Below are positions 31,507 through 64,000 of a DNA stretch of 64,000 nt, piece by piece (the first letter of the stretch is position 1; every line of letters begins with the position of its first letter). The stretch is from IMG/VR virus record IMGVR_UViG_3300031241_000001; one strand, written 5' to 3'. The stretch is from an uncultured virus (IMG/VR IMGVR_UViG_3300031241_000001). Taxonomy: Duplodnaviria > Heunggongvirae > Uroviricota > Caudoviricetes. The position numbers and the translations under genes are program-made. Below the pieces are notes generated by a model. That model worked only from the letters and a program-made list of their open reading frames with translations. It did no database searches and was not told where the DNA came from.

Positions 31507-31711
31507 ACTCCATGCCTGACCCCAACCCCAACGTCGGTGAGATGCCCGCTGCGCGGGCGCAGTGCCCCTGGGAGCCCGCGGCGATCGTGCGACTCCGCAT
31601 CGAGCGCGCTGCGTACGAGCGCGCGGGTCGCCCGCGGGGCTACTTCTTCCGGCAACGCGCGGATGTCGAGGCCGAGCTGGCCGAGGTCGCGCGGCGTCTC
31701 GGGAGGCCGCG

Positions 31712-41722: not shown

Positions 41723-42556
41723 TTGATGCACTGGATCATCCAGAACAACATCTACGAGGAGGAGGGCTTCGCCACGCTCTTAGAGACGCTCGACCGCTTC
41801 GACCTCACGCGCACGCTGGTCAAGGTCGTCCCGTTCGTCGGCGAGATCATCGGGACAGACGGGCCACCCCTGCCATCGTCCGGCGGCGACGCGATCGTGA
41901 TGGGTTCGTACTCGCTCGCTCGCCAGGCGAAAAAGATGGGTTGGGTGCCGGGGGCGTTCCTACACAACCTGGACTTCGAGGTCCAGCACCGCGCGTGGGG
42001 TGAGTGGATGCTCAACGCCGACGCGCACGTCTGCGCGTTCGACGCGGTGCCCTTCCAACCCGAGCCCTTCTTCATCCGCCCGGTGCACGACACCAAGGCG
42101 TTCACGGGGTACGTCGAGGACTGGGACGGGTACTCGAAGTGGCTCGCGTCGCTTCGGCGCCTGCCTGAGTCACCAGATCCGGAGAACGACCCGCTGGGCG
42201 TCAACCTGATGACCCTCAGCACACCGGTCATGGTTTGCGCGAAGAAGGAGATCTACTCCGAGACGCGCACGTGGGTCGTCGACGGTCGCGTCGTCACGAG
42301 CTCGGGGTTCAAGCTCGGGACCCTCAAGCGATACACGACGCCCGACCAGGTCGACTCGCGCGTCATCGACTTCGCGAACAGCGTGGCCGGTCACTGGTCA
42401 CCGAACGAAGCCTACGTGCTCGACGTCGCCGACACGGCTGACGGCCTCAAGGTCGGGGAGGTCAACAACCTGAACTCCGCGGGCTGGTACCGCGCGGACC
42501 TCCAACGGCTCGTCACAGCGCTTGAGGATCAGAGCGCTAGATCGAGGCGTCTGTGA
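41723..42556 (+). CDS. ATP-grasp domain protein (R2K/DUF4343-like)
   Basis: FFIRPVHDTKAFTG, ETRTWVVDGRVV, YVLDV...GEVNNLNSAGWY. Confidence 0.75.
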   Translation: MMHWIIQNNIYEEEGFATLLETLDRFDLTRTLVKVVPFVGEIIGTDGPPLPSSGGDAIVMGSYSLARQAKKMGWVPGAFLHNLDFEVQHRAWGEWMLNADAHVCAFDAVPFQPEPFFIRPVHDTKAFTGYVEDWDGYSKWLASLRRLPESPDPENDPLGVNLMTLSTPVMVCAKKEIYSETRTWVVDGRVVTSSGFKLGTLKRYTTPDQVDSRVIDFANSVAGHWSPNEAYVLDVADTADGLKVGEVNNLNSAGWYRADLQRLVTALEDQSARSRRL

Positions 42557-44092: not shown

Positions 44093-44556
44093 ATGGAGCG
44101 GATCGTCTTGATCACCAACCTGCTCGACGTCTCTATCGACACGGGCTTCGGGAGCGTGCGCACGCCCACGAACGCGCTCGTGCTCTCTGACCGTGGGCCC
44201 AAGGACGGAACGGGGGCGCGCTACCGCATGCACGGCTTTCACAACGAGGCCGGTAATCCGACGTTCGACCTGACGCTGCCCTCGTTCGACTGGACGATCG
44301 AGGCGCAAACCTACCGGAGGTCCTTCGCGCTCTGCTTCGTCGGAAAGGTCCCGAAGATCATGCTCTCGACCGACTTCGCGAACGATCTGCCGCTCGACAT
44401 CGAGCGCATGGATCGCACGGACGTCGGATGGGCCGACGTCCTCCTGCGCAAGGTGCTTCGCTACTATCACGCGCCCTACATCGTGCTCGGGCAGCAGCTC
44501 GACGCGGATCGAGCGCGCGAGGTCCTCGGTGTCGAGAGCGTCGACGGGGCATCCCG

Positions 44557-45366
44557 ATGAGGGACCCCCTCGCGCTCTCCTACGGCATGGGCGTCGACTC
44601 GACCGCCGTGCTCGTCGGCTGGTGGCGGCGCGGCATCCGGCCGCACTGGATCGGCCACGCGCAGGTCGGCAACGAGTGGCCCGAGACCTACGCGTACCGC
44701 CCCGTCATCGACGCTTGGCTCATCCAGGTTGGCTTCCCGACGATCACCGACGTGCAGTACGTCGTGAAGCGCCCCAAGCACGGGCACTACGCGACGCTCG
44801 AGGAGAACTGCCTGGTCAACCAGACGCTGCCGTCGCTCGCGTTCGGCTACAAGAAGTGCAGCCTCAAGTGGAAGGGTGAGCCGCTCGACGCCGCGTGCGC
44901 CGACTACTTCGCCGGCCATATCAAGGCGGGCGGCAAGGTCGTCCGCGCGATCGGCTACGACGCGGGCCCGTGCGACTCGCGACGCGGTGGCGTCGAGACC
45001 CAGGGCCCGTGGACGTGGGCCTACCCCCTGCGCGAGTGGGGCTGGGACCGCGACCGCTGCGTGGAGGAGATCGCCAGGGCGGGGCTGCCGGTGCCGCCGA
45101 AGTCGGCGTGCTGGTTCTGCCCCTCCACGAAACCCGCCGAGCTGATCCAGCTCGCGCGGCGGCACCCGGACCTCGCGCGCCGCGCCGTCGAGATGGAGGA
45201 CCGGGCGCGCCCGGGGCTGACGAAGATCGAGGGCCTGTGGGGCACGGGCGTCAAGGGCACGCGCGGCGGTGAGAAGAAGCCCGGGTCGTGGCGCGTGTTC
45301 CTGACGGAGCACGCGCCGGAGGTGCTGCCGGAGCTGCCGCCGCCCGCGAAGAAGGACGCCGCGTGA
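44557..45366 (+). CDS. PAPS-reductase-like (PP-loop) protein
   Basis: LSYGMGVDSTA, KCSLKWK, IGYDAG, YPL, PPKSACWFCP. Confidence 0.75.
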   Translation: MRDPLALSYGMGVDSTAVLVGWWRRGIRPHWIGHAQVGNEWPETYAYRPVIDAWLIQVGFPTITDVQYVVKRPKHGHYATLEENCLVNQTLPSLAFGYKKCSLKWKGEPLDAACADYFAGHIKAGGKVVRAIGYDAGPCDSRRGGVETQGPWTWAYPLREWGWDRDRCVEEIARAGLPVPPKSACWFCPSTKPAELIQLARRHPDLARRAVEMEDRARPGLTKIEGLWGTGVKGTRGGEKKPGSWRVFLTEHAPEVLPELPPPAKKDAA

Positions 45367-48052
45367 AGCGCTTCATCGTCGTGCAGGCGTCCACTAGTGG
45401 GGCGTGGCGTCACTACCTGGCGGCGTGGGAGAGAGGCGTTTCGCGTGTCCAGTCGCAAACGACCCAGCCCAACGACGCGATCCAAGAAGCGAAGCGTCGC
45501 GCGCGTGCTGAGCTGAACAAAATGCACGCTAGTAAACAGGGCCAGAGCTTCCTCGAAAGACACAGCACTTCGAGTGACATTCCTCGTCAGGCAAACACAA
45601 TGGCCCAGGACGTGGCGAAGGATCCGCGGGCACGCCCTGTTTGGCACGCAGACTGTGGGCACGCGCTGCGGCTCGACGAGCAGTCCGCTCGTTTGCTCGT
45701 CGACCAACTCGACACGCTCTATCGTCAGGCCGAAGCTGTGCACCACATGATCGAGGAATTGCTGTGACGAGATCGTTCAACGGACACGAGGTGGCGTTCT
45801 TGATGGGCTGGGCCGAGGGGCACGATCGGGACTTCGTGCTGCACCGCGAGGTGCTCGGCCGACGTTCGGACGGGTACGAGCACGCGCAGGTCGTCGTCGA
45901 GCACCCCGACGGTAAGCTCTACCAGTTCGAGGTGCGCTACGACGACGAGCACGGCATCATCCCGTGCCTCAGTCGGCCAAACGAGCTGACCGAGGCGGTC
46001 GAGGTCGAGGCGGTCGAGGTCGTGACGACCGTCTATCGTCCGAAGGGCACGGATGGCACGACGGGGGCATCTCCGTGATCGGCGGTGTCCTGCGCGCGTT
46101 CGTCTTGCCGCTCGCGCTCGGTGCCTTGATCGTGCTGGCCGTGACCTGTACCTATTGGGTGATGGAGCCGCTGCTCGCGAGCCGCACGGACTACGTCCGA
46201 GGTCTGTGGGAGGGGGCCGTCGTCGTGACGGTCGTCAACGCGGGGAACGCGATCGCGAGGCGCGTGATCAGGCATGTCGACGCACAGAAGGAGGACTCAC
46301 GTGACTGAAGAATCGCGGCCCCAGTGGTCTGACGAGGTCGTCGCCGAGAGCTTCCGTGCCGAGGTCCGCGCGCGCTTCGAGGCGCACAACGTCGCGTACC
46401 GCGCGCGTGAGGCGGCCGAGCTGGAGGCGGTGTTGCTCGAGCATCCCGACAAGCGCGGGCAGCCCGGCTACGAGGTCCGCGACAGCCTTGCTTGGTACGT
46501 GTACCAAGCGTCCGAGGTCCGGATCGACCGGAACTCGGTGTCGATCGTCCTGCCGCGCGGGATCCACATCGGGGTCGACCTCATCTACATGTTCGACCAC
46601 ACCACCGTGGCTGGGGGGAGTCTTTCGATCGGCGCGACGATCGTCGATGGCGAGGCGCGGGCCACGATCGAGATCATGCTCGTCGCCACCTGGGACGATG
46701 CGATGGACGTCGCGTGGCGCAAGGAGGGCCACGATCGCAAGCACGTTTTCGTCGAGCTCTTCGAGGACGACGTTCACACCCTCTGCGGTTTGATTGACGC
46801 GCGCGCCGACGCGGACGCCGAGGCTCTGAAGGTCCGCTCCGACGCGGACACCGAGGTGCTGAAGATTCGCGCCCGGTTGAAACTGGCATTGGAGGTCCTG
46901 TCATGAACGACGCGCTGCCGCTGCCCCCACCTCCCGGCGTCCGTGTCGACTCCTACGGAGACCACTACCCGGTCGCCGTCACCGCGCAGATCGTCGACGT
47001 CGGGGACCCGGACCGTTGGCGCCTCTTCATTGACACGTGGACCTACGACGCTGTTCGAGGGCTGTGGTCGCGCTCGTCGTTTGGTGACGGGCTCACGTCG
47101 ACTGAGGTGCGAAGGCTCTTCGAGCACGTGACCAAGCACGCACCTGGGGTCCTGCCGTGAGCCGCCGCGTGTTCACGCAGGCTGAGCGCTGGAGCCGCGC
47201 GATCGACGGCGGAGCGGACGTCTACGGCGAGGACTCGTGCGCCTACTGTGGGCGTCCCGTGCGCCCGGAAGCTGTTCGCCTGTACACGGCGCGCACGAAC
47301 GACGGCGAGTGGTGGCTCGTGTCCGCGGACGAGGACCTCGCGGGCGCTGAGTGGAAGGACTTCCAGACCCAGCTCAACGGTAGCCGCGCGCCGACGCTCT
47401 TGCCGGTCGGTCCCGACTGTCTGCGCGATCACCCGGAGTTCGCCTTCGCGGTGGCCGAGTACGCGGGGAGCGGCCGGAGCCGGAGGACCTCGTGACGCGC
47501 GGATCGGGGGTCCACGACGACGTCTCGAGGCACTTCGGAGTGTGCTCGCAGTGCGCGAGCGTCCAGCCGGAGAGCGTCCGTGTCGCGCAGCCTGAGGCGC
47601 TTCGGCGGACCGTCCCCGACGACGTGCTCGTCAAGCTGTGCCTCGCCGGCCGGTCGATCTATCGGGCGTACCTGCGCTGGCTCGCGGAGCCCGACGAGTG
47701 AGCGCCTCCAGCCGCGACTACGACCGGGACCGGGCCCTCTACGACTACGCGGTCCGGCGGGCGCTGTCCGTGTTGGTCGGCTATGCCGCGTGCCGCGGTC
47801 GGGGCTGGCACCATCTCGCCGACGGTGAGGTGATCGTCGCCGCGGAGATGGAGCTGTGACGGCCGACGAGGTGACAAGGGCCCCTGTGCGCGTGCTGCCG
47901 TGTCCCTTCTGCGGCGGGGCTGGCCATCGGTCCGCGCACGAGCACGAGCGCGGCATCGCTGTAGTCTTGGTGCTGGGACGAAGTCGGGCCGTGGCCGTGG
48001 CCGTGGCGCAGCGATCAGCGAGGATCGTCAGCTGATCAGATCAGGTGATGCT

Positions 48053-48752
48053 GTCGAGACCACGACGAGGTCTCGCATCGATTGCGCCGTTCTAGCTTTC
48101 TAGCTTGTTATGCAGGTACTTCTGTCGAGACCACAGCGCGGTTTCGCATCGATCGCGCCGGGCGCCGGGCGCCGAGCGCACCGGTCCCCACTCCGAGGTC
48201 GAGACCATCGCGAGGTCTCGCATCGAGCACGCCCGCTTCCGTGTCTCCTCTACGTCGAGACGTCGAGACCATCGCGAGGTCTCGCATCTCTCGCAGCGCT
48301 TGCGCTGATCTGTGCGTCCGTGCGTCCATCCCTCTACGTCGAGACCACAGCGAGGTCGCGCATTTATCGTTACGTGCTTGTGCTTGAGCGAGAAGCGAGA
48401 ACGGTCCGGGGTCCGGGGTCCCGTGTCCTGTGTCCCGTTATCCGACGCCGACGCCGACGCCCGACGCCTTGTGGACTTTGTCGAGTGTCGAGACCCGAGA
48501 CCCCAGTGAGGTCTCGCAGCGGTGATCTTCGTGCGCACGTCGTCTTCGAGACCACCGCGAGGTCTCGCATTGATCATTGATCGCGCCAGGCACCAGGTAG
48601 CGGCTCTTCGCTCTCCGCTCTCCGTCTCCGTCGACTCAGCGATGATCCAGTCGAGACCACAGCGAGGTCTCGCATCGAGATCGCGTTGGCGAATCCACCG
48701 ATTCACCTCAAGAACGTAAGCGTTGTCGAGACCACAGCAAGGTCTCGCATCG
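48053..48752 (-). CRISPR. Decayed array remnant, ~9 B-type repeats
   Basis: Variants of gtcgagaccaccgcgaggtctcgcatcgat near 48053, 48124, 48198, 48262, 48338, 48487, 48547, 48650, 48725. Confidence 0.85.
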
Positions 48753-48781
48753 TTCGGCACTACACACTACACGGTCAAGAA

Positions 48782-51694
48782 GTCTCGGTTGTTAACCAAC
48801 CGAGCGGGTACGATCATAGGGTGTCCCTTAGAGCCTTAGACAGTGCAGTAGCTTCCTGTCTCAGCCGTCAACCGGCTGAGCAAGTGCGACCAAGGGCCTC
48901 GGGCCTCGGGCTTGTGCCCCTCGGGCCTCGGGCCTCGGGGGTCGGGGAGAATGCACGGACTCCCACTCGTCTCGGGCGTCGACCGACCGAGCAAGTCTTG
49001 CGGTTTGCGGTGTGCCGGTGTGCCGGTGTGCCGGTGTGCCGTGTGCCGTTGCTCAAGTCCCGGTCGTCAACCGGCCGAGTGACCGAGTCTCATGGCACTG
49101 CGCTGTAATCCCCTTGCTGTCTCGGTCGTCAACCGACCAAGCAGGTACTCTCGCTACATGCACATGCGCGCACTGGCACTCACTGACGTCAACCGTCCGT
49201 CTGAGCGTCTGAGCTGCAACAAGCTCAAGGCTGGTCTCGGACGTCAACCGTCCGAGCAGGCGCGATCACTCCGAAGCTCCGTAGGCATAGCTGTCTCGGA
49301 CGTCGGACGTCAACCGTTCGAGCAGGTGTCGATCATCCGCACGAGTGTCGAGTGTCGAGTGTCGAGCGCAAACTCGGGATTCTCTGTCTCGGACGTCAAC
49401 CGTCCGAGCAGGTGCGATCACCTACCAGGGTGAGAGATGGAAACAATCTCCGTCTCGGGCGTCAACCGTCCGAGCAGGTGCGATCACTCTCATAGATCAC
49501 GTGCTCCAGCCTCCAGCCTCCAGCCTCCAGCCTCCAGCCTCCAGACGTCGGATCAGGCTCGTCTCGGACGTCAACCGTCCGAGCAGGTGCGATCACCTGC
49601 CCCCCTGCCCCCCGCAGAGGCCGCAGAGGCGCAAGAACTCTCTCGCCAGTCTCGGACGTCAACCGTCCGAGCAGGTGCGATCACAGGCAGGTTCTCGCCT
49701 GGCTCCCGGCTCCCGGCTCCCGGCTCCACCTAACCAAGGTGTCTCGGACGTTAACCGTCCGAGCAGGTGCGATCACCCGCTCGCTGAGCGTGAGCGTGAG
49801 CGGCCGATCGTAGCGGGTGTCTCGGACGTCAACCGTCCGAGCAGGTGCGATCACACGCGAGCATCGGGTGGCGCTGGCCCTCTCTAAACAATGCGTCTCG
49901 GACGTCAATCGTCCGAGCAGGTGCGATCATCTTCTGGACGCACGACGACAGATTCGGGATTCGGGTTGGCCCAGTCTCGGACGTTAACCGTCCGAGCCGC
50001 ATCCCATGCGGCAGCGGCCCGATCCCTTGTCTCGGACGTCAACCGTCCGAGCAGGTGCGATCACCTCGCACGGGCGCGCGAGCCGTGAGGCCGTGAGCCG
50101 TCGATCGAGCTCAAGTCTCGGACGTCAACCGTCCGAGCAGGTGCGATCACTTGTGCGCGCGCATGCCGCGGGCGGCGGGCGGCGCGTGGTCTCGAACGTC
50201 AACCGTCCGAGCAGGTGCGATCACACGACGACGAATCAGCAGGCAAGGATAACTGCTGGTCTCGGACGTCAACCGTCCGAGCAGGTGCGATCACAGGGGA
50301 CGGACATCTTCGTGTTCGATCTTGGCACGCCTCGACCTCGAGCCACCTATAGTCTCGGACGTCAACCGTCCGAGCAGGTGCGATCACAAGCCACCCGCGA
50401 CGCCTACGCGATGGAGCGTCGAGTCTCGGACGTCAACCGTCCGAGCGTCCGAGCAGGTGCGATCACACGCGCTGTACATCGGCCCCGGCGAGAAGTTCCG
50501 GTCTCGGACGTCAACCGTCCGAGCAGGTGCGATCACACGCGACCCGTGACCCGTTGCGCGAACGCGCGAACGGAACGGCCGGCTCCTCGTCTCGGACGTC
50601 AACCGTCCGAGCAGGTGCGATCACGCTCGGCGGCCAGCTGATCAGCACGCGCGATCGCTTGTCTCGGACGTCAACCGTCCGAGCAGGTGCGATCACAATT
50701 GGCGATCAGTTGCGCGCGGCTGCGCGCTCGTCTCGGACGTCAACCATCCGAGCAGGTGCGATCACCCGCAGTTCGGGCAGGGAGCGTCCTCAAAGATCTG
50801 TCTGTCTCGGACGTCAACCGTCCGAGCAGATGCGATCACCTTCGACCGGTAGCGCGAGCGCTCGGGTACTTGTGGTCTCGGACGTCAACCGTCCGAGCAG
50901 GTGCGATCACGCGTCTCGACGGGGTAGCGCACCGAAATGGTCCGGGTCTCGGACGTCAACCGTCCGAGCAGGTGCGATCACGAGGTCAGCCGGTGTCCCA
51001 AATGCGGCGCCTTCGGGTCTCGGACGTCAACCGTCCGAGCAGGTGCGATCACTTGTGACGCATGTGCTCGCGGCTGGCAGCACTCAGTCTCGGACGTCAA
51101 CCGTCCGAGCAGGTGCGATCACAGGATCACGCGCGTCGCCTCGTTAATCAGTCCGTCGTCTCGGACGTCAACCGTCCGAGCAGGTGCGATCATGCGAGAG
51201 CCGTGCCCGTCTGAATCACGATCTCCCAGCGTCTCGGACGTCAACCGTCCGAGCAGGTGCGATCACCGGCCGGGCGAAGCTTACCCGTTCAACTATCGAG
51301 TGTGGTCTCGGACGTCAACCGTCCGAGCAGGTGCGATCACAGGTGCCGCCTTTTGCTGCGTGTACAGGCGTTGGCTGTCTCGGACGTCAACCGTCCGAGC
51401 AGGTGCGATCACTCACCCATCGGACTGGCCAGTCCCTGGAGATCGGGTCTCGGACGTCAACCGTCCGAGCAGGTGCGATCACACGTCGTGACCGATCTAG
51501 CGATGACTAATCGGTTCGTCTCGGACGTCAACCGTCCGAGCAGGTGCGATCACCCTCGGCGCTGCGCGTAGCTGGTCTGCCCGTCTAGTCTCGGACGTCA
51601 ACCGTCCGAGCAGGTGCGATCACTCGCAGCAGGCGATCCTCAAGCTGGCGCGGCCGATGTCTCGGACGTCAACCGTCCGAGCAGGTGCGATCAC
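48782..51694 (-). CRISPR. CRISPR array A: 36-bp repeat GTGATCGCACCTGCTCGGACGGTTGACGTCCGAGAC, ~33 near-consensus plus ~6 diverged copies
   Basis: Manual count 49234-51694; spacers about 33-38 nt at the right end; decay at the left end gives the orientation; 8-bp stem CTCGGACG/CGTCCGAG. Confidence 0.97.
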
Positions 51695-51843
51695 CGGAGT
51701 TTCTTATTCAGTTGTCAAAGAAGGCACTTGCATCCTTCGATGCAGGCACCGGTAGCTTTACTCCACGCTCGTGCGTGTCGCGAGGGAGGACCCCTCTGAA
51801 TGCTGCTGTACGGCCTGAGGTTTCGGGGGCGCATGAACCTCTT
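51695..51843 (-). promoter_or_regulatory. Array A leader with boxA-like antiterminator and a small hairpin
   Basis: Minus strand TTCTTTGACAACTGAATA (51705-51722), preceded by hairpin TGCATC-GAAG-GATGCA (51729-51744). Confidence 0.65.
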
Positions 51844-53781
51844 CTACGCGGCACGCCGCACCTGCGGCACCGGACCGCTCGACAAGCCGTGCCTGTGGAG
51901 GAGGTTGCGCGCGGCGTTCGCGTCCTGGTCCCAGGTCCGAATGCACGACGAGCAGGTGTGCTCGATCGAGGCTGCCGCGTCGAACGCCTCGACCGAGCCG
52001 CACCACGCGCACGCCTTGGTCGAGTCCGCGGCCTGCTCGGCCTCGACGCGGGCGCCGCGTTTGGGGGCGGCCTTGAGGATCTCGGCGCGAAGCTCGCCGG
52101 GAGCTGCAAGGCGGCTCATGCGGCGCTGCTCGCGCCCGTCGGACGGGTCGCCGTCCTCCGGCGCGGGCTGCTCCCAGCCGTCGACCTCGGTGAGCTTCAT
52201 CGAGGTGTCGTGGTTCGACCCGCTCTCGATCAGGATCGTCGCGTAGCGGGCGGTGAGCTCGGCGGCGATCACGCGCCACACCTCACGGCGGTGGGCGATC
52301 AAGCGATCGCGCTGGTGCTCCTCCCAGTTCTGGAGGTGTCGATCTTGGCGCGCCCACGCCTGGAGCACGGCGAGGATCGGACCGTCGCCGTCGATGCGGT
52401 TGGCCGTCGAGCCGAAGTCCGAAGGGTTGCACTTCTTGCCCTCGGCGCGAGCGACGCGCCAGGCGTCCCAGTCGATCCCAGTCCAAGCGTCGACGAGGGA
52501 GGCGAGCTTGCGGGGGGCGCGCCACTGCGCCAGGCTGCCGACGCGCTCGGCCATCCACGCGGGGGTCTCCCGGTCGAGCAGCCAGGCCGCGAGGCGGTCG
52601 CGCGCGGTCTCGAACTCCTTGTCGCGGATCGACGCCAGGTCGTGGACCTTGGCCATTCCCGTCAGCAGATCGTCGGGCACACGGATCTCGCGCTCGTGCC
52701 CGTGCTCGTCGACGAGGTAACCAACGCGCAGACCGACCTGCACGCCCTGGGCGTCGAACAGCCGCCGCCAGCCCAGGTCGATCGCGCAGGTCCCCTCGCC
52801 GATCGCCACCGGGCAGGCACGAAAGCGCTCGCTCTCGAGCGTGAGCTGGAACCTCCACTCGTAGTGACGGCCGACGCGCTTGCGCACGACGTACGCCCAC
52901 TTGATCACCGCGTCCTTCGGGATGGGTCGGTGGAGGGTGAGGGGGAAGCGCGCGAAGATCGGCTTCCGGTCAGGGTGGCTGCCGACGCGCAGGTCGACGT
53001 ACGTCCGTGCCGCGTGACGGCGCAGGTTGCGCGGGAGGCACGCGGCCTCCTCCCACGTGGCGCACGCTCCGACCTCGGCGCGCGGGTGCTTGTCGGCGAG
53101 ACCAGGGGTCCCCAGCCGGAGCCGGGAGTCCTGCTGCGACAGCAGCTCGCTGACGGTCATGCCGTAGATTCCCGGGGCGCCGTCGCGCGCGATGAGCTGC
53201 GTGCCGATCGATCCGGTCCCGTCGTAGCGCTCGAAGTGGAGCGGGCGCTTCGCCGTCTTGACGGCCTGCTTGACCGAGTTCTCGACGCGGTCGTAGGTGC
53301 CGGTGCGCAGTCCTCGCTCGATGAAGGCGCGGCGGGCCTCCTTGCGGCGCAGCGCCGTGAGCGCGCGCGCGGCCTCGTAGCCCGGCTGGAGCTGCGCCGC
53401 GCGAGACGCCTTGGCCTCGCGCAGCTCCGCGCCGCACAGGGCGCGGAGGTCCTTGGCGCGGGCGAGCACCTCGCGCTCCGCCGTCAGGTCCGGGGCAGCG
53501 ACGCCGGACTTCGCGGCCCGCAGGTCGTCGTAGGCGTCGTCGACGGCACCCGCCGCGTCCTCGTAGTCGCGGAGGGCCGCACCGACGATCGGATCCGCGA
53601 GCTGGACGCCGCGGAGGTCGTCCCAGAGCTTGTGCTCGATCTCGACGAGCGTGTTGCGGTACTGGTGCGCGAGGCGGAACTGCTCTTCGACGCGGTTCAC
53701 CTCGGTGATCGGAGGCAGGCAGCGGTACGAGTAGATCCGGGTCGGGACGTCGGAAGTCTTCTTCCTGGGCTGTCGCGGCAT
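51844..53781 (-). CDS. cas12m: Type V Cas12m-like (V-U1/TnpB-derived) effector A, 645 aa
   Basis: EEQFRLAHQYRNTLVEIE, long helical insert, FERYDGTGSIGTQL, LHRPIP, AIDLGWR, QWRAP, ILIES, AAPGELR, CAWC/CSSC, DQDANAARNL; adjacent array. Confidence 0.85.
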   Translation of the reverse strand: MPRQPRKKTSDVPTRIYSYRCLPPITEVNRVEEQFRLAHQYRNTLVEIEHKLWDDLRGVQLADPIVGAALRDYEDAAGAVDDAYDDLRAAKSGVAAPDLTAEREVLARAKDLRALCGAELREAKASRAAQLQPGYEAARALTALRRKEARRAFIERGLRTGTYDRVENSVKQAVKTAKRPLHFERYDGTGSIGTQLIARDGAPGIYGMTVSELLSQQDSRLRLGTPGLADKHPRAEVGACATWEEAACLPRNLRRHAARTYVDLRVGSHPDRKPIFARFPLTLHRPIPKDAVIKWAYVVRKRVGRHYEWRFQLTLESERFRACPVAIGEGTCAIDLGWRRLFDAQGVQVGLRVGYLVDEHGHEREIRVPDDLLTGMAKVHDLASIRDKEFETARDRLAAWLLDRETPAWMAERVGSLAQWRAPRKLASLVDAWTGIDWDAWRVARAEGKKCNPSDFGSTANRIDGDGPILAVLQAWARQDRHLQNWEEHQRDRLIAHRREVWRVIAAELTARYATILIESGSNHDTSMKLTEVDGWEQPAPEDGDPSDGREQRRMSRLAAPGELRAEILKAAPKRGARVEAEQAADSTKACAWCGSVEAFDAAASIEHTCSSCIRTWDQDANAARNLLHRHGLSSGPVPQVRRAA

Positions 53782-53885
53782 CCGTGAATGGCTAACAGGA
53801 TGATAGACGTTTTGCAAGGCTTCGTGACGGCGGTCCCCCTGGGACAGAGTCACTACCCCGGAGCGTACACGGCGTCCGATTCACG

Positions 53886-56800
53886 TCGAGACCACTGCGA
53901 GGTCTCGCATCGATCGCGTGATCGCCTGTTGGTCGAGGTTTCACATCGATCGTGCCGCCTTGCCGTGCCAGGTGAGCAAGCGCTTGCACACGTCGAGACC
54001 ACAGCGAGGTCTCGCATCGATCGCACCAACCTGAAATCGTCGGCGCCTTCATCCGGACGATTCGTCGGTCGGTTGAGACCACAGCGAGGTCTCGCGTCTC
54101 GCATCGATTGTGCCGAGAGTCGGCGCGGAGTTCTACGTTGACTTCTTCGGGTCGAGACCACCGCGAGGTCTCGCATCGATCAGGCCCGGCAATTTCATTG
54201 GCCGGAACTCCCAGTACCGGCTGGTCGAGACCACCGCAAGGTCTCGCATCGATCCCAGCCCAAATGTGAATCCGTCGAGACCACCGCGAGGTCTTGCATC
54301 GATCATCGATTGGGCCTCCCGCCCGCTCGCCAGCTCGCCGGGTTAGCAGTGGTCTCGACGAGCGGATCTACCGCGAGGTCTCGCATTGATCGTACCCCTT
54401 TTCCCTCGCCGTTTTCGCGGTCGTTGAGACCACTGCGCGCTGCGAGGTCTCGCAGCGATCGGGCCGAGCGGCCGAGCGGCCGAACGGAGCTGCCCCCAGC
54501 TCACGCGCTCGTAGGCTGATCGACCGGCTCGTCGAGACCGCCGCGAGGTCTCGCATCGATCGTGGCACTTCTTCGGGACCATACCCGTCACCTTGAGGAG
54601 AACTCGTCGAACCTCGTCGAGACCACCGTGGTCTCGCATCGATCGTGCCAATCGATTCGCGCAACGTCGATCGTGTCTGATTCGACGAGCTCGGGGCGAA
54701 GCGGTCGAGACCACAGCGAGGTCTCGCATCGATCATGCCTGTGGTGACGAAAAGGGCTGACAACGGTGACCTGTGGGTCGAGACCACAGCGAGGTCTCGC
54801 ATCGATCGTGCGTCGGTGACTTGCTTCGATCGTGTCTTTGTCGGGGGCTTGCGCGAAACTTGGACCATGGGCAGTCGAGACCACAGCAAGGTCTCGCATC
54901 GATCACACCTGCGAACGGCGAGCTTCACAGTCAAGACGGCGCGCATTGATCTTGGCAGGCTTCAAGTTTCAAGTCCCTCGTGCGCCTTATCGTCCGTATC
55001 GTCGCGTTCTGGTCGAGACCATCGCGAGGTCTCGCATCGATTGCACCAGGGCTGCTCTGTGCCCTGGGGGCATGCTCGGTGCTCGGCTGCTCGTCGAGAC
55101 CCCTGCAAGGTCTCGCACTGACCGGAACTGATTCGCAACCACCTGTCGAGACCACCGCAAGGTCTCGCATCGATTGTGCCGTTTGTACGTGAGGTTGATG
55201 AGGGGACGTCGAGAGTCGAGACCACCGCTCCTCATGGCAGCGTCGGGGTGGACCAACGACCAACGGTCGAGACCACCGTGAGGTCTCGCATTGATCGTGC
55301 CCCCTTCTTGGGCCAGCAGGCGTCCTCCGTCAAGTGGTCGAGACCACAGCACAGCGAGGTCTCGCATCGATCGCGCCTCGATATCGCGCGGGCGCGCGGT
55401 GGTGGCTCAATGCTCAATGTTGTCGAGACCGTAGATGACCTGCGGCATTGCGGCACATTGAGCGTGGTCGAGACCACAGCGAGGTCTCGCATCGATTGTG
55501 TCACTCGGCGATCTCGTTGTCCGTACCCCGTCGCCGCAGTCGAGACCACAGCGAGGTCTCGCATCGATTGTGCCCGACCTCGTGATTCGTGATTCGACGT
55601 GAGGATGGAGATCCCGGTGTCGAGATCTCGCGTCGATTGTGCCGTGGACGCCAAGTGGAGCGAGAGCCTTGGTAAAGCTGTCGAGACCACCGCGAGGTCT
55701 CGCATCGATCGTGCCAAGTAGGCTGCACATGAGTCGATGGCCGTTCGGCGTGTCGAGACCACCGCGAGGTCTCGCATCGATCGAGCTTGCGCACAGGTTT
55801 TCGAGACCACCGCGAGGTCTCGCATCGATCGTGCCGTGAAGACGTAGTCCCCGCGCGGCGGACTCGCATTGTCGAGACCACCGCGAGGTCTCGCATCGAT
55901 TGTGCCCGTCAGCCCAAGCACCCTGTCGCGCTGGGAGTCGAGACCACCGCGAGGTCTCGCATCGATTGTGCCGCCTAGGCGCAGGCGTCTCACCTACGCA
56001 ATCGCTAAGTCGAGACCACCGAGGTCTCGCATCGATCGTGCCGGGGGGCCGGGGATCGTCGACCGTCGGCCCAACTGCGGACAGTCTAGGCGAGACCACA
56101 GCGAGGTCTCGCATCGATCGTGCCCAGCGCTTGCTCGCTTCCTCTTCGCGCGCCGATGACGACGTGTTGCGGCGGTAACAGGTAACAGGTGCGCACCGGG
56201 TGTTTGGGTCGAGACCACAGCGAGGTCTCACATCGATTGTGCCCCGGCTAAGCTGAAGAACCGTGACCCCAAACTACGGCGAGTCGAGACCACAGCGAGG
56301 TCTCGCATTGATTGTGCCCCGTGACCAGGCTCGAGTACGTCAGCTTCAGCACCGTAGGGTCGAGACCACAGCAAGGTCTCGCATCGATTGTGCCAGCCTC
56401 AGGCTCCGCGTCCTGCTATTCCCGTTCGTCCAAGTCGAGACCAGCGCGGTCTCGCATCGATTGTGCCACGTGCCACGCGAGCCGCATCCCAGCCGTCAGG
56501 GTGTCGAGACCACCGCGAGGTCTCGCATCGATTGATTGTGACGCCGTGCAGCGCGCCAAGAATCGGGGCGATGCCAGTGTCGAGACCACCGAGGTCTCGC
56601 ATCGATTGTGCCGTACCGCCGCGAGCGCGCCTTGACCGACGTAGAGCGTGTCGAGACCACCGCGAGGTCTCGCGTCTCGCATCGATTGTGCCGCGACACT
56701 CGCCGAAGTCGACCTCCGATCCCGACCCTGTCGAGACCACCGCGAGGTCTCGCATCGATTGTGCCTCCGCACCGTGCGCTGCGCGCTTCGGTGTCGTCTG

Positions 56801-59800
56801 GTCGAGACCACCGCGAGGTCTCGCATCGATTGTGCCTGCCGGCCTGCCGGCCTGCCGGCATCGCGCCGACGTCGTGGACGTGGGCACACCCGTCGTCGAG
56901 ACCCCCGCGAGCACAGCACCGATCGTCAACTGGTCGAGACCACCGCGAGGTCTCGCATTGATTGTGACCGCTCGGGTCACCCACCATCTGCCGTGACACG
57001 ATCTTGTCGAGACCACCGCGAGGTCTCGCATCGATTGTGCCGACGGACGCGGACGTCGTCGAGAAATGTCGGCCCTTGTCGAGACCACCGCGAGGTCTCG
57101 CATCGATCATCGATCGTGCCTTGCCACGACTACGCATGTGGCTCGGCGGGTCTGCGCGTGGGGCCACACCTCGGACTGGTCGAGACCACCGCGAGGTCTC
57201 GCATCGATCATGCCGTTACCTGCTAAGACGGTAAGCAGGGAGGTCGTCGAGACCACTGCGAGGTCTCGCAGCGATCGTGCCCGTGAGGTCTCGCCCCTGC
57301 GACGTTGGGATCGGTCGTTGGTCGAGACTACCGCAAGGTCTCGCATCGATCGTGCCGCAACAGAATTCGTGACGGCGCCGATACTCGGAGCGGTCGAGAC
57401 CACCGCGAGGTCTCGCAGCGATCGTGCCCAGGCATCTATCAAGGCTACGCTTGCACGGGCGCTCGTCGAGACCACCGCAAGGTCTCGCATCGATCGTGCC
57501 CTTTGCTGTCATGTGTCCTCTTCTTCCTTCTTCCTTGCAGGTTGTCGAGACCATCGCGAGGTCTCGCATCGATCGTGCCGCGCGGTCGCGCCGTCGCGCG
57601 GGACGCGATGCTGTAGTCGAGACCACCGCGAGGTCTCGCATCGATCGTGCCGCTCGCGTAGCGAGGTGCCAACGGCGTTCTTACGAGGTCGAGACCACCG
57701 CGAGGTCTCGCATCGATCGTGCCGCCCAGGAGCGTCAGAGTGTCGACCATTTCGCCGTGTCGAGACCACCGCGAGGTCTCGCATCGATCGTGCCGTTCAA
57801 CCCGCACTCGGGCAAGCACAAGACGCTCGGTCGAGACCACCGCCGTGACGGATGAGCCTGTTGCTGTTGGGCAGGCCTACGTCGTATTGGTCGAGACCAC
57901 CGCGAGGTCTCGCATCGATCGTGCCCTGGCTGTCCTTAAGACGAGGCCCCTATGGACCGAGAGTCGAGACCACCGCGAGGTCTCGACCACATGGCTCCGG
58001 CTCTGGTCGAGACCACCGCGAGGTCTCGCATCGATCGTGCCGTCTCCACGTTCACGCCGCCCTCCCACGCGAGCCAGTCGAGACCACCGCGCGGTCTCGC
58101 ATCGATCGTGCCGTGCCACGTGCCACGTGCCACAGCAGCAGCGAGCCCAGACTAGACAGTTCGTCGAGACCACCGGGAGGTCTCGCATCGATCGTGCCAG
58201 TCGGTCGCTTGACCATGGCTAACCTCAAAAATGTGTCGAGACCACCGCGAGGTCTCGCATCGGTCGTGCCCTCGATACGGACCCGAGAAACGGAAACTGG
58301 TTTTTCAGTCGAGACCACCGCGAGGTCTCTCATCGATCGTGCCGGCCAAGTCTTCCTCGGTCGTCGAGCGCCCGCCGGCCTTGTCGAGACCGCCGCGAGG
58401 TCTCGCATCGATCGTCGATCGTGCCCTCTTGTAGACCCAGCCGTGTAGCCGATAGAGCTGCTTGTCGAGACCACCGCGAGGTCTCGCATCGATCGTGCCG
58501 TCTCGTCGCTCGCCATGCTCGCCGGCACACCGAACCCGTCGAGACCACCGCGAGGTCTCGCATCGATCGTGCTCCCAGGCGAGCGAGTCGAGGTAGTCGC
58601 GGACCGGGTGGGTCGAGACCACCGCGAGGTCTCGCATCGATCGTGCCGCACGCGGGCGCGCGCTCGGTGTCGTTGACCGTTGACCGAGGAGGTCGAGACC
58701 ACCGCGAGGTCTCGCATCGATCGTGCCGCCGTGCAATTGCGGACGGCCGATCTACTTCCGGTGGTCGAGACCACCGCGAGGTCTCGCAATCGATCGTGCC
58801 GGTCGAGAGTGCGTGACCGAAAACACGGAACCGGAGGCTGGTCGAGACCACCACGAGGTCTCGCATCGATCGTGCCGTACAGGTTCGCCGTGGTGCCCTT
58901 GGGCGCACCGTAGTCGAGACTACCACGTCATAGCGGCCGTCGAGACCACCGCGAGGTCTCGCATTGATCGTGCCGCGACCTCGTCGAGGTGCCGCTCGTC
59001 GTTCATTCTTGTCGAGACCACCGCGAGGTCTCGCATCGATCGTGCCTTGCCTAGCCGCCGAGGCGTTCGGCGACAAGACAGCGGGTCGAGACCACCGCGA
59101 GGTCTCGCATCGATCGTGCCGCGGCCGCGGCCGGGCAGGAGGGCAGGAAGTTGAACGTCGAGTCAACTTTGTCGAGACCACCGCGAGGTCTCGCATCGAT
59201 CGTGCCGAACGCCGAACACTGCTGAGCGGCAGGCGATACTCCTAGGGCAGTCGAGACCACCGCGAGGTCTCGCATCGTCGCATCGCTCGTGCCTGCAACG
59301 CGCGGTTCGCTCAGCGGGGGTTGGAGGTGGTCGAGACCACTGCGAGGTCTCGCATCGATCGTGCCCGCGACTCGTTCGTCGTTCGCCGCGTCGGCCGTAG
59401 TGCGCCGGGTCGAGACCACTGCGAGGTCTCGCATCGATCGTGCCACGCGCGCCAAGTCGGTCCAACTAAGAGCCCCAATCGTTGTCGAGACCACCGCGAG
59501 GTCTCGCATCGATCGTGCCCAGCCGACCGAATTCGCCACTGCATTTACGACGCTGTGTCGAGACCACCGAGAGGTCTCGCATCGATCGTGCCGAACGCGG
59601 GCGCGTCGGGCTCGAGTTCGTTCCATTGGTCGAGACCACCGCGAGGTCTCGCATCGATCGTGCCGCGCGCATCGTGCGGCAAGCGTGCGGCAAGCGTGCG
59701 GCATGAGCTTGTCGAGACCGCCGCGAGGTCTCGCATCGATCGTGCCTTATCGTCGGACTTGCCGATCCCGAGCTGCCCTTTTGTCGAGATCACTAGGTCT

Positions 59801-61785
59801 CACATCGATCGTGCCGGTTATGGCGCCCTCGTTGTCGCAGTGCCCGTTCTCGTCGAGACCACCGCGAGGTCTCGCATCGATCGTGCCGATCGTCGACGTG
59901 GAACGTGGAGGCGCGTTGGCGCAACCGGAAGTCGAGACCACCGCGAGGTCTCGCATCGATTGTGCCCGTCGCGCGCTCGCCCGATATCGATGAGCCCAAC
60001 GTGTCGAGACCACCGCGAGGTCTCGCATCGATCGTGCCGGGAAGTAGGCTGCACATGAGTCGATGGCCGTTCTGCGTGTCGAGACCACCGCGAGGTCTCG
60101 CATCGATCGTGCCGTCTAACGTGGCTGCTCACCGGAGCCGTGGTTCGCTGTCGAGACCACAGCGAGGTCTCGCATCGATCGTGCCTCGGGAATTCCAAGA
60201 CCTCCGTCAGCGGTTCCTCTCGTCGAGACCACAGCGAGGTCTCGCATCGATCGTGCCGGTGTCAAACGTGCGATGGAACAGGCGGAGGTTTAGGTCGAGA
60301 CCACCGCGAGGTCTCGCATCGATCGTGCCTGAACACGTTCTTGCCGTTGGCGCCTTCGCCATAATGGTCGAGACCACCGCGAGGTCTCGCATCGATCGTG
60401 CCGTTGTGCAGACACTTTGCCGTAACGACGCCGGTGTCGTCGAGACCACCGCGAGGTCTCGCATCGATCGTGCCGAACGACTCGAAGGTCGCGACATCGA
60501 CGCATCTGTCGTCGAGACCACCGCGAGGTCTCGCATCGATCGTGCCCGCGTGCGAAGCAGAGATGCCCTCGAGCAGTCGCTCGTCGAGACCACCGCGAGG
60601 TCTCGCATCGATCGTGCCGCTGCGCGACCGCGACGAAGCTCGTCGTCCTCATAGATGCTCACGTCACGTCGAGACCACCGCGAGGTCTCGCATCGATCGT
60701 GCCACAGGAGTAGACACGGATCCACGGAGGAACCAATGGGTCGAGACCACAGCGAGGTCTCGCATCGACGACGTGATCGCCCGTTGGTCGAGACCACCGC
60801 GAGGTCTCGCATCGATCGTGCCAGGTCGGGCTGGACCTTGGCAGTCGAGACCGCTGCGAGGTCTCGCATCGATCGTGCCGAAAGCGGCCGGGTCGGGCGC
60901 GGGCGCGATCTGCGCGTCGAGACCCCCGTGAGGTCTCGCGTCTCGCATCGATCGTGCTGTTCAGGATCTCAGCCGCAGCGAGCGAGGTGTCTATGTCGAG
61001 ATGTCGAGACCACCGCGAGGTCTCGCATCGATCGTGCCCAGCAACGAACCCGGGCTAGAGAGTTCGAACCCATGTCGAGAGTCGAGACCACCGCGAGGTC
61101 TCGCATCGATCGTGCCGATCGCCGCCGCGATTGAAGCAGCGCTCGTCTCTGGCGTCGAGACCACCGCGAGGTCTCGCATCGATCGTGCCTGATCTGAGCG
61201 GCCTTGTCGATCGGCTCAAGGTCGAGACCACCGCGAGGTCTCGCATCGATCGTGCCGGCTCGGACGCATGACCAAGAGCGTTACGTTCGATGTGTCGAGA
61301 CCACCGCGAGGTGCCATGACCTCACCATAGCGCGCCCGCGATCGTGCCGACGAACCCGAATTCCTCCGCCGAGGACAATCCGTAGGTGTCGAGACCACCG
61401 CGAGGTCTCGCATCGATCGTGCCGGGGCTTGGGCTCGATCCGCGCTACACGATCTCGTCGTCGAGACCACCGCGAGGTCTCGCATCGATTGTGCCCGCCT
61501 GACGGTACGCCGCCGGGGCGGAGGGCTGCGTGTCGAGACCACCGCGAGGTCTCGCATCGATTGTGCCCTCGACCGTCTCGTGCCAGCCCTTCGGGATTCG
61601 CACGTCGAGACCACCGCGAGGTCTCGCATCGATTGTGCCCACTCTCGTGGTCTCGTGGCAATACCCACTCGACGTGCGTCGAGACCACCGCGAGGTCTCG
61701 CATCGATTGTGCCGCGCCGCTTGTCCGGTGGCGACCAGGACTTCAGGATGTCGAGACCACCGCGAGGTCTCGCATCGATTGTGCC
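53886..61785 (-). CRISPR. CRISPR array B: 36-bp repeat GGCACGATCGATGCGAGACCTCGCGGTGGTCTCGAC, ~108 copies including truncated ones
   Basis: Manual count; spacers mostly 34-40 nt; more decayed at the left end; 7-bp stem CGAGACC/GGTCTCG. Confidence 0.97.
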
Positions 61786-61802
61786 TTCGATTGTCAGAGA
61801 AC
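61786..61802 (-). promoter_or_regulatory. boxA-like element abutting the first repeat of array B
   Basis: Minus strand GTTCTCTGACAATCGAA, similar to the array A leader motif. Confidence 0.55.
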
Positions 61803-61806
61803 GAAC

Positions 61807-62078
61807 CATGCTTATCCGGTTGTCACCCCTCGCGGGCGCGACGGATCTCCTTGATCTTTCGCTCGGCGCGCTTCGCAGAGGCTCGCCATTCAGCGAGAGC
61901 TTCCGTTGGGGTGAATTCTTGAATCGTTCCGCCGACGTTGATCACGGACGGTCGCTTGCCCAGAGAGGCGGAAAGAAGCTCGCCCATTTCGGAGCGGATG
62001 ATTTTAAGTTCACGTTCGAGTCGCGATGCCATTTGATGTCTCCCTGATCACGTTTGGGGTGTTAACCGGATAAGCATG
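61807..62078 (-). mobile_element. 272-bp non-autonomous single-gene insertion cassette, same family as 22591-22924
   Basis: Ends CATGCTTATCCGGTTGTCACCCC / GGGGTGTTAACCGGATAAGCATG; 8-bp direct repeat GAACGAAC at 61799-61806 and 62079-62086. Confidence 0.92.
61823..62032 (-). CDS. hypothetical 69-aa cargo protein of cassette 2
   Basis: GGGAG RBS; stop codon lies inside the inverted repeat. Confidence 0.7.
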   Translation of the reverse strand: MASRLERELKIIRSEMGELLSASLGKRPSVINVGGTIQEFTPTEALAEWRASAKRAERKIKEIRRAREG

Positions 62079-62090
62079 GAACGAACGATC

Positions 62091-64000
62091 CTACGGCGTT
62101 GCGGGGCTCGGCGCGAGCGGCTGCTGGTCCTTCCGCCGGTTCCGCCGCGCCGGGGCCTTCTTCTTCGTCGAAGGTGCCGGAACCTTGGGGTCGAGCGGCC
62201 ACCCGCTCTCGCCGCGCGCGACGGCGCTCGCGGCGGCGAGCAGGTTTCGGCTCATCGTGATGTCCTGGTCCTCGGCGTGGCCGCAGTTCTCGCAGCGGAT
62301 CACCCGCTGCACCCGGTCTTCCCGCGAGACGTCGCGGTGGTGACCGCAGGCCGCGCAGTCGAGCGTCCCACCGGCAGCGTCGACCTCCAGGTCGACGCTG
62401 CCGTACTTCTTCGCGAAGTAGCCGACGCGGGCGCGGGCGCGCCCGGGCCCCAGGATGTTCACGCGGCGCGCCGTCTTCTTGCGCAGCTTCTGCTCGTCCT
62501 CGTCGTGCTGGTCGTCCTTCTCGACGAGGCCGGTCACGTCGAAGTCGTCGCGGGCGACGACCCCGTAGCGCTTGGCCAGCTGGACCGCGACCGCGGTGAC
62601 GCGGCCCTCGACCTGGCGCTGCATGCGCTCGAGGCTCGGCACCTCGCGGTGGAGCAGGTGGACGTCCTGCTTGCTCCACGCCTCCAGCGCCGCGAAGGCC
62701 GGCTGGTCGCCGTGGATGCGCTGGTCTCGCCACTGCCGGTGCAGGCGGACGTACTTGCTGGGGGCCCGCCAGTTGTGCATGTGGCGGCTCTCTTCGCGGA
62801 GCCACGACGTCGCCGGCAGCGACCGGGCGTAGGCGAGGATCATGTCGCGGAGCACGTCCTGGTTCTGGTCGCGGATCGAATGGATCGAGTCGGCCCAGGG
62901 TTTCACACCGAGCACGTCCTCGGGGATCACGAGTTGCCCCCAGAGCGGGCTCGCGGGGTCGTTGGGGTCGAGTGGCGCGGTGGCGCTCCACGTGAGCAGG
63001 CGGATGCCCGCCTTCTTGCCCTCCTCGTCGAAGAGCTGACGCCAGCCGATGTGGACGGCGACCGCGTCGTGCGGGTGCGGGTGCGGGGTGGTCACGGCCA
63101 CGGAGCCCTCGACCTCAAGCGTGAGGTACCAGCGGTAGCGGAGCCCGGTGCGCTCGCGCCGGACCACGGCCCACTTGACGACGTCGTGCCCGAGCTGGAG
63201 GCGGTTCTTCGTGCGCGGGGACTGGTGCAGGAGCAGGTGCATCTGGGCCCAAATCGGGCGGATGGTGCCCGGCACAGTCCCGACGCGGATCGCGAGCGCG
63301 TGGAAGCGCTTGCCCTTCGTGGCGGCCTCTCCCGCGCGCGGCCCGATCTTGATGACGTCTCCCGGGTTCCCGGCGACGTCGATCGCGCGCCCCTCGGCGT
63401 CGACCGCGGCGGGTCGGAAGTGGTCGACCGGGGCACCCAGCGAGTACGCGACCGATCCGATGCGCAGCCAAGACCCTTCGCCGCCGATGAGATCGTCGGC
63501 GTAGACGGACTTCTTGGCGGGAAGTGTCTTGCCGGTCCGCGCGTCGATGCGCGCGTTCTGCCGCTGGAACTGGACGGCGATGCGGCCCACGTCCGGGGGG
63601 AAGTCCGTCCCCACGAACGTGGTCCGGCCGTTTTCGTCGATGAGCCCTGCCTTGTCGATCGTGCGCCGCGCGAAGTCGGCCGCGTCGTCCGCCTTGCCGA
63701 GCGTCCCCCACATGGCTCCCGCCTCGATCGTCGCGTCGCGCACGGCCTTGAGCGCGCGCTTCTTCCCCGCGAACACGCGCTCGCGGAGGGCCTTGAACTC
63801 GTCAGAGGCGTGCCACGCATCGCGGGCAGCTTTCCCAGCCTCCGACTTCCACCACGCGCCACGCGCTTCGACGGGTACGTCCCTGGCCGGGTAGTCGATG
63901 AGCGCGCGCCGGAGGAAGCGCTCGCGGTTCTCGATGAGCGCGATCTGTCGGCGGTAGCGCGCGCCGAGGCGCACCTGCTCGCGCAAGCAATGGTCGTCGG
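62091..64000 (-). CDS. cas12m: Type V Cas12m-like effector B, 5' end beyond the window
   Basis: REQVRLGARYRRQIALIE, GRIAVQFQ, AVHIGWR, NWRAP, ARDDFD, CAAC/CENC, DQDITMSRNL; frame is open to the window edge. Confidence 0.85.
   Translation of the reverse strand, partial: DDHCLREQVRLGARYRRQIALIENRERFLRRALIDYPARDVPVEARGAWWKSEAGKAARDAWHASDEFKALRERVFAGKKRALKAVRDATIEAGAMWGTLGKADDAADFARRTIDKAGLIDENGRTTFVGTDFPPDVGRIAVQFQRQNARIDARTGKTLPAKKSVYADDLIGGEGSWLRIGSVAYSLGAPVDHFRPAAVDAEGRAIDVAGNPGDVIKIGPRAGEAATKGKRFHALAIRVGTVPGTIRPIWAQMHLLLHQSPRTKNRLQLGHDVVKWAVVRRERTGLRYRWYLTLEVEGSVAVTTPHPHPHDAVAVHIGWRQLFDEEGKKAGIRLLTWSATAPLDPNDPASPLWGQLVIPEDVLGVKPWADSIHSIRDQNQDVLRDMILAYARSLPATSWLREESRHMHNWRAPSKYVRLHRQWRDQRIHGDQPAFAALEAWSKQDVHLLHREVPSLERMQRQVEGRVTAVAVQLAKRYGVVARDDFDVTGLVEKDDQHDEDEQKLRKKTARRVNILGPGRARARVGYFAKKYGSVDLEVDAAGGTLDCAACGHHRDVSREDRVQRVIRCENCGHAEDQDITMSRNLLAAASAVARGESGWPLDPKVPAPSTKKKAPARRNRRKDQQPLAPSPATP

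Follow-up and report, generated by a model that had tools for sequence, protein, structure and literature searches.

Two type V-M effectors with different RuvC triads, each with its own CRISPR array, on one huge-phage-like element

Does an intact RuvC triad tell a DNA-cutting type V-M CRISPR effector from one that only binds? The question is raised by a stretch of 64,000 nucleotides (nt; hereafter the window) from the uncultured-virus record IMGVR_UViG_3300031241_000001 of IMG/VR, part of a 461,400-nt metagenome contig, in which two cas12m genes lie on one strand. Effector A carries the canonical Asp-Glu-Asp (D-E-D) residues and effector B a His-Asp-Asp (H-D-D) set. An earlier sequence-only reading had proposed that A may be a nuclease-active relative of Cas12m, or an intermediate between TnpB and Cas12m, paired with B as a silencer. 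The present analysis favours another answer, to which we give a probability of roughly two in three: both effectors would be DNA binders, guided by CRISPR RNA (crRNA), that block transcription or replication. Along the minus strand the locus runs from cas12m-B through array B, cas12m-A and array A to a worn remnant of B-type repeats, with the following window coordinates.

62091..63998 and on past the window end, minus strand: cas12m-B, 651 amino acids (aa) at full length, its 16 first codons outside the window; RuvC codons H332 at 63051-53, D500 at 62547-49 and D595 at 62262-64 (651-aa numbering)
53885..61785, minus strand: CRISPR array B, at least 102 repeats of 36 nt, between cas12m-B and cas12m-A
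51844..53781, minus strand: cas12m-A, a 645-aa type V-M effector (translation and codons checked); start ATG at 53779-53781, stop at 51844-46; RuvC codons D335 at 52777-79, E519 at 52225-27 and D620 at 51922-24
51695..51843, minus strand: putative leader of array A, inferred from its position between the cas12m-A stop codon and the first repeat
48858..51694, minus strand: CRISPR array A, at least 36 repeats of 36 nt, 22 of them perfect
48052..48800, minus strand: array B', 8-10 strongly degraded B-type repeats past the far end of array A

The full-length effector B is protein P0272 of the same 461,400-nt contig and includes all 635 residues encoded in the window; its model and alignments were made with P0113, the representative of its cluster and a near but not letter-for-letter match to P0272.

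Both effectors are members of the Cas12m family (type V-M, formerly named V-U1), a kinship that the sequence-only reading had recognized and that profile, solved Cas12m chains and fold directly support. The PADLOC Cas12u1 profile matches effector A over essentially its full length (E 8.8e-89; model positions 3-529 of 533 against residues 14-630) and effector B over its C-terminal half (E 1.4e-38); the controls MsCas12m and a mycobacterial plasmid Cas12m gave 2e-92 and 1e-212. The AlphaFold2 models of A (predicted local distance difference test, pLDDT, 86.5; predicted template modelling score, pTM, 0.67) and B (84.8 and 0.78) both have the bilobed WED-REC-RuvC-TNB fold of Cas12m2 and GoCas12m. 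In the Foldseek version of the PDB, which does not include 23vw, the top four matches of both models are Cas12m2 and GoCas12m, namely the clade 2 structures of MmCas12m2 (8hhl, 8hhm, 8hio) and GoCas12m (8pm4); Cas12f and TnpB follow at query TM scores (TMq) of 0.33-0.39, Cas12f coming first with 0.36-0.38. Against Cas12m2 8hhl, the A model scores E 2.8e-31 and TM 0.69/0.74, with 23% identity in the fold alignment, and the B model E 7e-27 and TM 0.63/0.69. The best solved sequence match of A as well as of B is PDB 23vw (577 aa), with D-E-D at the aligned positions; effector B gave no sequence match to 8hhl at E up to 1. Effector A, which has a CxxC...CxxC zinc ribbon, exceeds the typical Cas12m size and carries two insertions relative to MsCas12m, one of them of 25 aa around residues 434-458. 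That it might be a pseudogene was considered and rejected: the frame is intact, the G+C content at third codon positions (GC3) is 0.91, and the identical protein occurs on 8 contigs.

Could A instead be a transposon-derived TnpB-like protein, or a step on the way from TnpB to Cas12m? Pfam sees only the shared TNB zinc-ribbon domain in it, and the NCBIfam hits are all to TnpB models. Yet guided_TnpB reaches just 31.6 bits against a cut-off of 100 and covers only the C-terminal 80 residues (550-630), and the TnpB models as a group reach no further than the final 80-120 residues, while the Cas12u1 match is full length. The structural comparison that the sequence-only reading had recommended puts the A model at TM 0.69/0.74 to Cas12m2 but at 0.37/0.61, core only, to TnpB 8h1j. 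Moreover, A has its own long array, with 36 or more repeats and a hairpin that covaries, and it sits deep inside the family tree rather than at its base. Because of the full-length Cas12u1 match, the fold gap and the sub-cut-off, C-terminal TnpB hits, A is judged not to be a TnpB-like intermediate, and this origin is barely credible; A as TnpB itself was rejected on the low NCBIfam score, the C-terminal match and the TMq of 0.37 to 8h1j.

The two triads had been correctly read off the sequence. The frame of effector A (window 51844-53853, minus strand) contains CAIDLGWR, TILIESGS and WDQDANAARNLL, and that of effector B AVHIGWR, VARDDFD and EDQDITMSRNLL; the triads are D335-E519-D620 in A and H332-D500-D595 in B, with every codon checked, and they fall in the RuvC columns of solved Cas12m structures. 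In HMMER alignments, the D, E and D of A pair with those of 23vw (E 1.2e-64) and with the H, D and D of Cas12m2 8hhl (E 9.3e-26), and the H, D and D of B pair with the D, E and D of 23vw (E 1.2e-25). When the A family (47 sequences) was compared with the B family (15 sequences) in hhalign, the probability was 100% (E 9.5e-75, 533 columns), and D/H, E/D and D/D fell in common columns. A MAFFT alignment of 251 relatives likewise gave identical triad columns for A and B. Judged from these alignments, the triad correspondence is a matter of homology and not a chance motif match. The Glu of A, whose absence from the RuvC-II position had been named as grounds for giving up the nuclease proposal, stands at that position in all three alignments.

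How unusual, then, is D-E-D? With A as query, 109 relatives were found, all metagenomic, at 26-100% identity; B as query gave 8, and in an exhaustive HMMER search 1,963 representative proteins matched B at E <=0.001. The triad alignment, with 251 rows (266 proteins minus 15 shorter than 480 aa, including three named plasmid proteins), is a non-random sample enriched for kin of A and B, and counts 180 D-E-D, 22 N-G-D, 13 H-D-D, 9 N-E-D, 3 N-D-D and 24 other triads. D-E-D is dominant in every large clade of the corresponding tree. The D-E-D of A is the ordinary and probably ancestral state of Cas12m; across the family, with its roughly 2,000 representative proteins, this triad is shown to be the rule, and the variants are scattered side branches. 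Effector A is placed in an all-D-E-D clade of 25 (support 0.999), inside a clade of 102 (support 1.0) with 74 D-E-D, 19 N-G-D and 5 N-E-D members. Nested subclades with N-G-D and N-E-D make up 25 of these 102 sequences. In the N-G-D subclades the RuvC-III motif is altered too (A to Y or H after D-Q-D-A-N), so that the pocket changes as a unit. At one N-x-D locus (L013), array-like repeats are still present downstream, so that catalysis is apparently dispensable close to A. The swap of D-E-D for N-G-D or N-E-D, with an altered RuvC-III, is seen in the A-family proteins P0037-P0064. No close relative of A or B was found in IMG/VR; among the GTDB species genomes, two patterns found no A-family relative, and one 31% relative of the wider clade of B came from an uncultured alphaproteobacterial metagenome-assembled genome.

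What the triad does has been addressed by published biochemistry. The statement of the sequence-only reading that MmCas12m has an H-D-D site and blocks transcription agrees with Omura et al. 2023 (PMC10442227). In the parts of that paper used here, four Cas12m clades are distinguished by triad, clade 2 with HDD and clades 3 and 4 mainly with DED; the DED clades are suggested to be ones that 'may facilitate' DNA hydrolysis, and Cas12m2 converted from HDD to DED still failed to cleave. Bigelyte et al. 2024 (PMC11013384) assayed eight orthologs, four with D-E-D, two with H-D-D and two with N-D-D. As described in the sections of that paper on which we draw, none of the eight cleaved double-stranded DNA (dsDNA), six showed binding that depends on a protospacer-adjacent motif (PAM), and purified MsCas12m, a D-E-D protein, gave neither cleavage of target DNA or RNA nor collateral activity. 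With 180 of 251 relatives carrying D-E-D, four such orthologs that do not cut and a DED form of Cas12m2 that is inactive, the triad does not serve as the mark of a likely nuclease for which it had been taken. On our assessment, the nuclease inference for A restates a speculation already in print, one that later tests, going by these sources, did not bear out in other clades; because the question of whether D-E-D means nuclease has already been answered in the negative for four orthologs, the finding as originally posed is unsurprising.

It may still be asked whether A differs from those orthologs and cuts or nicks DNA through its D-E-D site, with B silencing only. Its triad is intact, its RuvC-III motif (D-x-N-A-A-R-N-L) is canonical and it keeps the zinc ribbon; the triad is retained by 74 of the 102 members of its clade, and wherever it is lost the changes are coupled (D to N with E to G and an altered RuvC-III, in subclades). 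The suggestion of Omura et al. 2023 for the D-E-D clades 3 and 4 points the same way, as does a 2026 preprint (10.64898/2026.09.14.751636) that reads a phage D-E-D Cas12m as a nuclease, without an assay, and the D-E-D orthologs assayed so far all belong to clades other than that of A. However, the motifs of MsCas12m are equally canonical, and this protein showed no activity in cis or in trans; all four tested D-E-D orthologs failed to cleave dsDNA, and the DED back-mutation did not revive Cas12m2, as far as the published passages go. In addition, the nearest solved relative, the D-E-D protein 23vw, was deposited under the name 'CRISPR-associated DNA-binding protein Cas12m', and close N-G-D relatives of A apparently manage without catalysis. 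We therefore consider a nuclease-active A unlikely. Also doubtful, at a similarly low level, is the more far-reaching proposal that the large, strictly D-E-D and mostly virus-borne clade of A really cuts or nicks, in which case the phage would carry a nested cutter along with a silencer whose H-D-D single-metal pocket is convergent. If A did cut, this natural pair would lend itself to finding which features other than the triad decide whether a Cas12m cuts or binds.

The conservation of the triad nevertheless demands an explanation, and one could be that the D-E-D site of A is catalytic on RNA, either in pre-crRNA processing or on target RNA, and not on DNA. Cas12c and Cas12j, which process pre-crRNA in RuvC (PMC10442227), offer a precedent, and the portions of the literature cited here do not establish where pre-crRNA is processed in Cas12m. 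Against this stand the reports that MsCas12m D274A retains pre-crRNA processing (PMC11013384), that D485A has little or no effect on processing by Cas12m2 (PMC10442227), and that MsCas12m, in the assays cited above, cleaves neither target nor collateral RNA. An RNA-acting site in A is accordingly improbable.

For the H-D-D of effector B, the position in the tree, which is directly supported here, is informative. The H-D-D clade of B, with seven members (support 1.0), has as its sister a D-E-D protein (P0120) that is 51-53% identical, a pairing supported at 1.0 / 100, and it is nested in a clade of 48 of which 33 are D-E-D. MmCas12m2 was represented in the trees by two mycobacterial plasmid proteins, one of which (P0268) matches 8hhl at E 3.8e-193 and GoCas12m at E 3.5e-173; this mycobacterial H-D-D pair lies elsewhere in the tree from B, beside another D-E-D protein. 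An IQ-TREE analysis of 70 rows under a mixture model requires at least four changes to explain H-D-D, at least three of them forced by well-supported branches, and H-D-D forms five separate groups in the 251-row tree. When the clade of B and the mycobacterial pair were forced to be monophyletic, the log-likelihood fell by 167 and the approximately unbiased (AU) test, run in iqtree2 under LG+G4 with 44 of the 70 rows, gave p 4e-85. Effector B was therefore ruled out as a member of Cas12m clade 2 by descent, despite its H-D-D residues in the same columns; its RuvC-III motif reads Q-D-x-T-M-S-R-N-L, as opposed to D-x-D-x-S-x-x-x-L-M-L in the clade 2 proteins. The trees indicate that B reached H-D-D independently of the MmCas12m2/GoCas12m lineage. 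A clear second origin of this kind speaks for H-D-D as a functional way of holding a strand and not a random wreck. A statement of H-D-D convergence was not met in the parts of the literature cited here, and no search aimed at it was made.

The arrays bear on whether A and B are working effectors, and on whether they form a pair. Both genes adjoin an array with repeats of about 36 nt that carry a hairpin at the end next to the spacer, as type V-M systems do, and arrays and repeat hairpins alike are directly supported by the sequence. The array A repeat, read on the minus strand, ends in an 8-bp hairpin followed by AC, with an RNA fold of -16.1 kcal/mol; its stem closes on a 5-nt loop, as compared with a 7-bp stem and a 7-nt loop in the B repeat. 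Across nine related loci, compensatory changes affect five of the eight stem pairs of the A hairpin, and G-U pairs in it, which would be A-C on the opposite strand, fix the direction of transcription. The 22 perfect repeats of array A lie near the gene, and repeats degrade with distance from cas12m-A; the commonest spacer length is 35 nt in array A and 36 nt in array B (28 of 101). At other metagenomic A-family loci an array lies directly downstream of the gene in 11 of 22, most of the loci without one ending too soon to tell; three loci with about 10 kb of downstream DNA each (L005, L006 and L007) have no array. On this sequence evidence, effector A is a CRISPR-associated, working effector with its own array. 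Two of the three array-less loci, L005 and L007, carry A-like genes of 66-67% identity, the contigs being 231 and 202 kb long, and in both a single repeat-like hairpin (11918-11955 in each) stands immediately after the A-like gene, with no array within 10 kb.

The sequence-only reading had joined A to B as a cutter with a silencer, and the repeats argue otherwise. Along array B, away from cas12m-B, the B-type repeats differ from their consensus by a mean of 0.77, then 1.67, then 2.92 substitutions, and those of B' by 5.25. A repeat variant with 'A' in column 12 occurs in 11 of 25 repeats in the far part of B and in 4 of 8 in B', as against 0 of 30 in the middle of B. Because the decay gradient runs through B into B' and the column-12 variant is shared, the A module, about 5 kb, appears to have landed inside the old end of array B, which would make B' the severed oldest end. 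As an apparent later insertion, A would be a neighbour of B and not one half of a designed cutter-plus-silencer pair. A further A-like protein (P0023) and a B-like one (P0117) are apparently encoded together on one contig of 332,853 nt, not within 10 kb of each other, which suggests that the lineages travel together but not as a fixed unit.

Taken together, we propose that two independent type V-M modules reside on one strand of a 461-kb huge-phage-like element. Each effector would probably bind the crRNAs that its own array gives rise to; the hairpins of the two repeats differ. The effector-crRNA complex would recognize a PAM-flanked dsDNA target and form an R-loop, and the effector would then remain bound, so that transcription or replication of the target is blocked with no cut made. 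The D-E-D pocket of A would most likely hold the displaced strand via magnesium, as the H-D-D pocket does in Cas12m2. Two distant Cas12m proteins from one genome, with different pockets and repeats, could be useful as orthogonal binders for gene-control tools.

Several observations weigh against this proposal. The published in vitro transcription-translation (IVTT) assay reveals double-strand ends, not nicks (PMC11013384, as there described). The orthologs found negative for cleavage lie outside the 102-sequence clade of A, and at identities of 28% between A and MsCas12m and 23% between A and Cas12m2 the negative assays reach A only by a long extrapolation. That the clade of A holds so strictly to D, E and D, and loses them in a coupled way, implies that the intact pocket is under selection, possibly for catalysis. 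No protospacer was found for spacers of either array: searches of the window, the fetched related loci and GenBank phages, and of plasmids for array B only, gave neither a match nor a PAM. For the insertion history there is a single locus to go by. Finally, the 64-kb window showed no gene for a capsid, portal or terminase protein, and with no structural gene there the phage nature of the element is not proven.

Among characterized proteins, MsCas12m (P0267 in our alignment), from plasmid pMESIL02 of Allomeiothermus/Meiothermus silvanus (NC_014214.1), is an instructive counterpart of A. Like A, it has D-E-D in the same columns, its RuvC-I Asp, D274, corresponding to D335 of A, as well as a canonical RuvC-III motif, the Cas12u1 profile and a single effector with an array, and it is plasmid-borne; unlike A, it has 536 rather than 645 aa, and the two are 28% identical. 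It is experimentally a binder and a non-cutter (PMC11013384, in the sections used here), whereas A is known here from its sequence and model. Phage-borne D-E-D Cas12m is already on record, and D-E-D clades of Cas12m have been published. Myxophage MV-1 carries a single phage-borne D-E-D protein, MvCas12m, with an adjoining array of 8 spacers (10.64898/2026.09.14.751636). Virus Rctr197k (KX853510.1, 197 kb; L028 4950-8366) has a 622-aa D-E-D Cas12m-like gene, annotated only 'similar to transposase' and immediately followed by an annotated CRISPR region of 1.5 kb; identity is 28.9%. Adaptation genes are absent nearby in both, as at this locus, where no cas1, cas2 or cas4 was detected in the 64-kb window among 49 open reading frames (ORFs) searched with Pfam and 17 more searched with PADLOC. 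MV-1 and Rctr197k each have one module with a small array, whereas this locus combines modules from two different lineages, whose arrays count at least 36 and at least 102 repeats. What this locus adds is modestly new: the convergent H-D-D, a nested locus of two modules with a very long array, and micro-duplications in old array segments.

The rest of the window offers a partial view of the carrier. Upstream of the arrays (window 1-47500) there are 49 ORFs, of which 39 lack a Pfam match and 7 have a PHROGs match: an RNA ligase, IF-3, three paralogs resembling 3'-phosphoadenosine 5'-phosphosulfate (PAPS) reductase and two families of unknown function. The following ORFs were singled out.

7689-8324: RNA ligase, resembling mycobacteriophage RNA ligases
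8243-9760: 505-aa ORF whose single GenBank phage match, a 485-kb uncultured phage, shows 47% identity over 97% of the ORF
19894-21102, 31562-32695 and 44428-45366: PAPS-reductase-like paralogs
23973-24716: stand-alone IF-3 gene
41723-42556: R2K ATP-grasp ORF, of a kind typical for jumbo phages, matched in 61 phage records, the best being jumbo phages of 308-357 kb

In the flanks of related loci, 44 of 52 ORFs have no Pfam match, and the closest ESM Atlas clusters for A are 79-91% viral. The gene content makes it fairly probable that the 461-kb element is a huge phage, and otherwise it would be another large mobile element. Phage arrays have a median of six repeats in the material cited from Al-Shayeb et al. 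2020, and array B, with at least 102, may be a very large array on a huge-phage-like element. A scan of 47500-64000 for promoter and terminator consensus sequences gave no more candidates than shuffled sequence, and none in the putative leader; tRNA and Rfam scans of the window detected nothing. In a search of the window outside the arrays no anti-repeat was found, the best local score, 16, belonging to a sense-strand copy inside cas12m-B. This copy, at 62324-62341 on the minus strand, lies inside the coding region and reproduces the hairpin core of the array B repeat in 17 of 18 nt. One array B spacer is present twice, at 55716-55751 and 60042-60077, about 4.3 kb apart and identical at 35 of 36 positions. 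Old spacers, and even repeats, contain perfect tandem duplications of 6-12 nt in up to 5-6 copies (for example at 49504-49544); duplications of 7-11 nt crowd the oldest array parts. Per kb there are 13.3 duplications in 47900-50000, 3-4 in array B and 1.4 elsewhere in the window, and of the 65 found elsewhere 57 are multiples of three; the micro-duplications look like a signature of slippage that is visible only where selection is absent.

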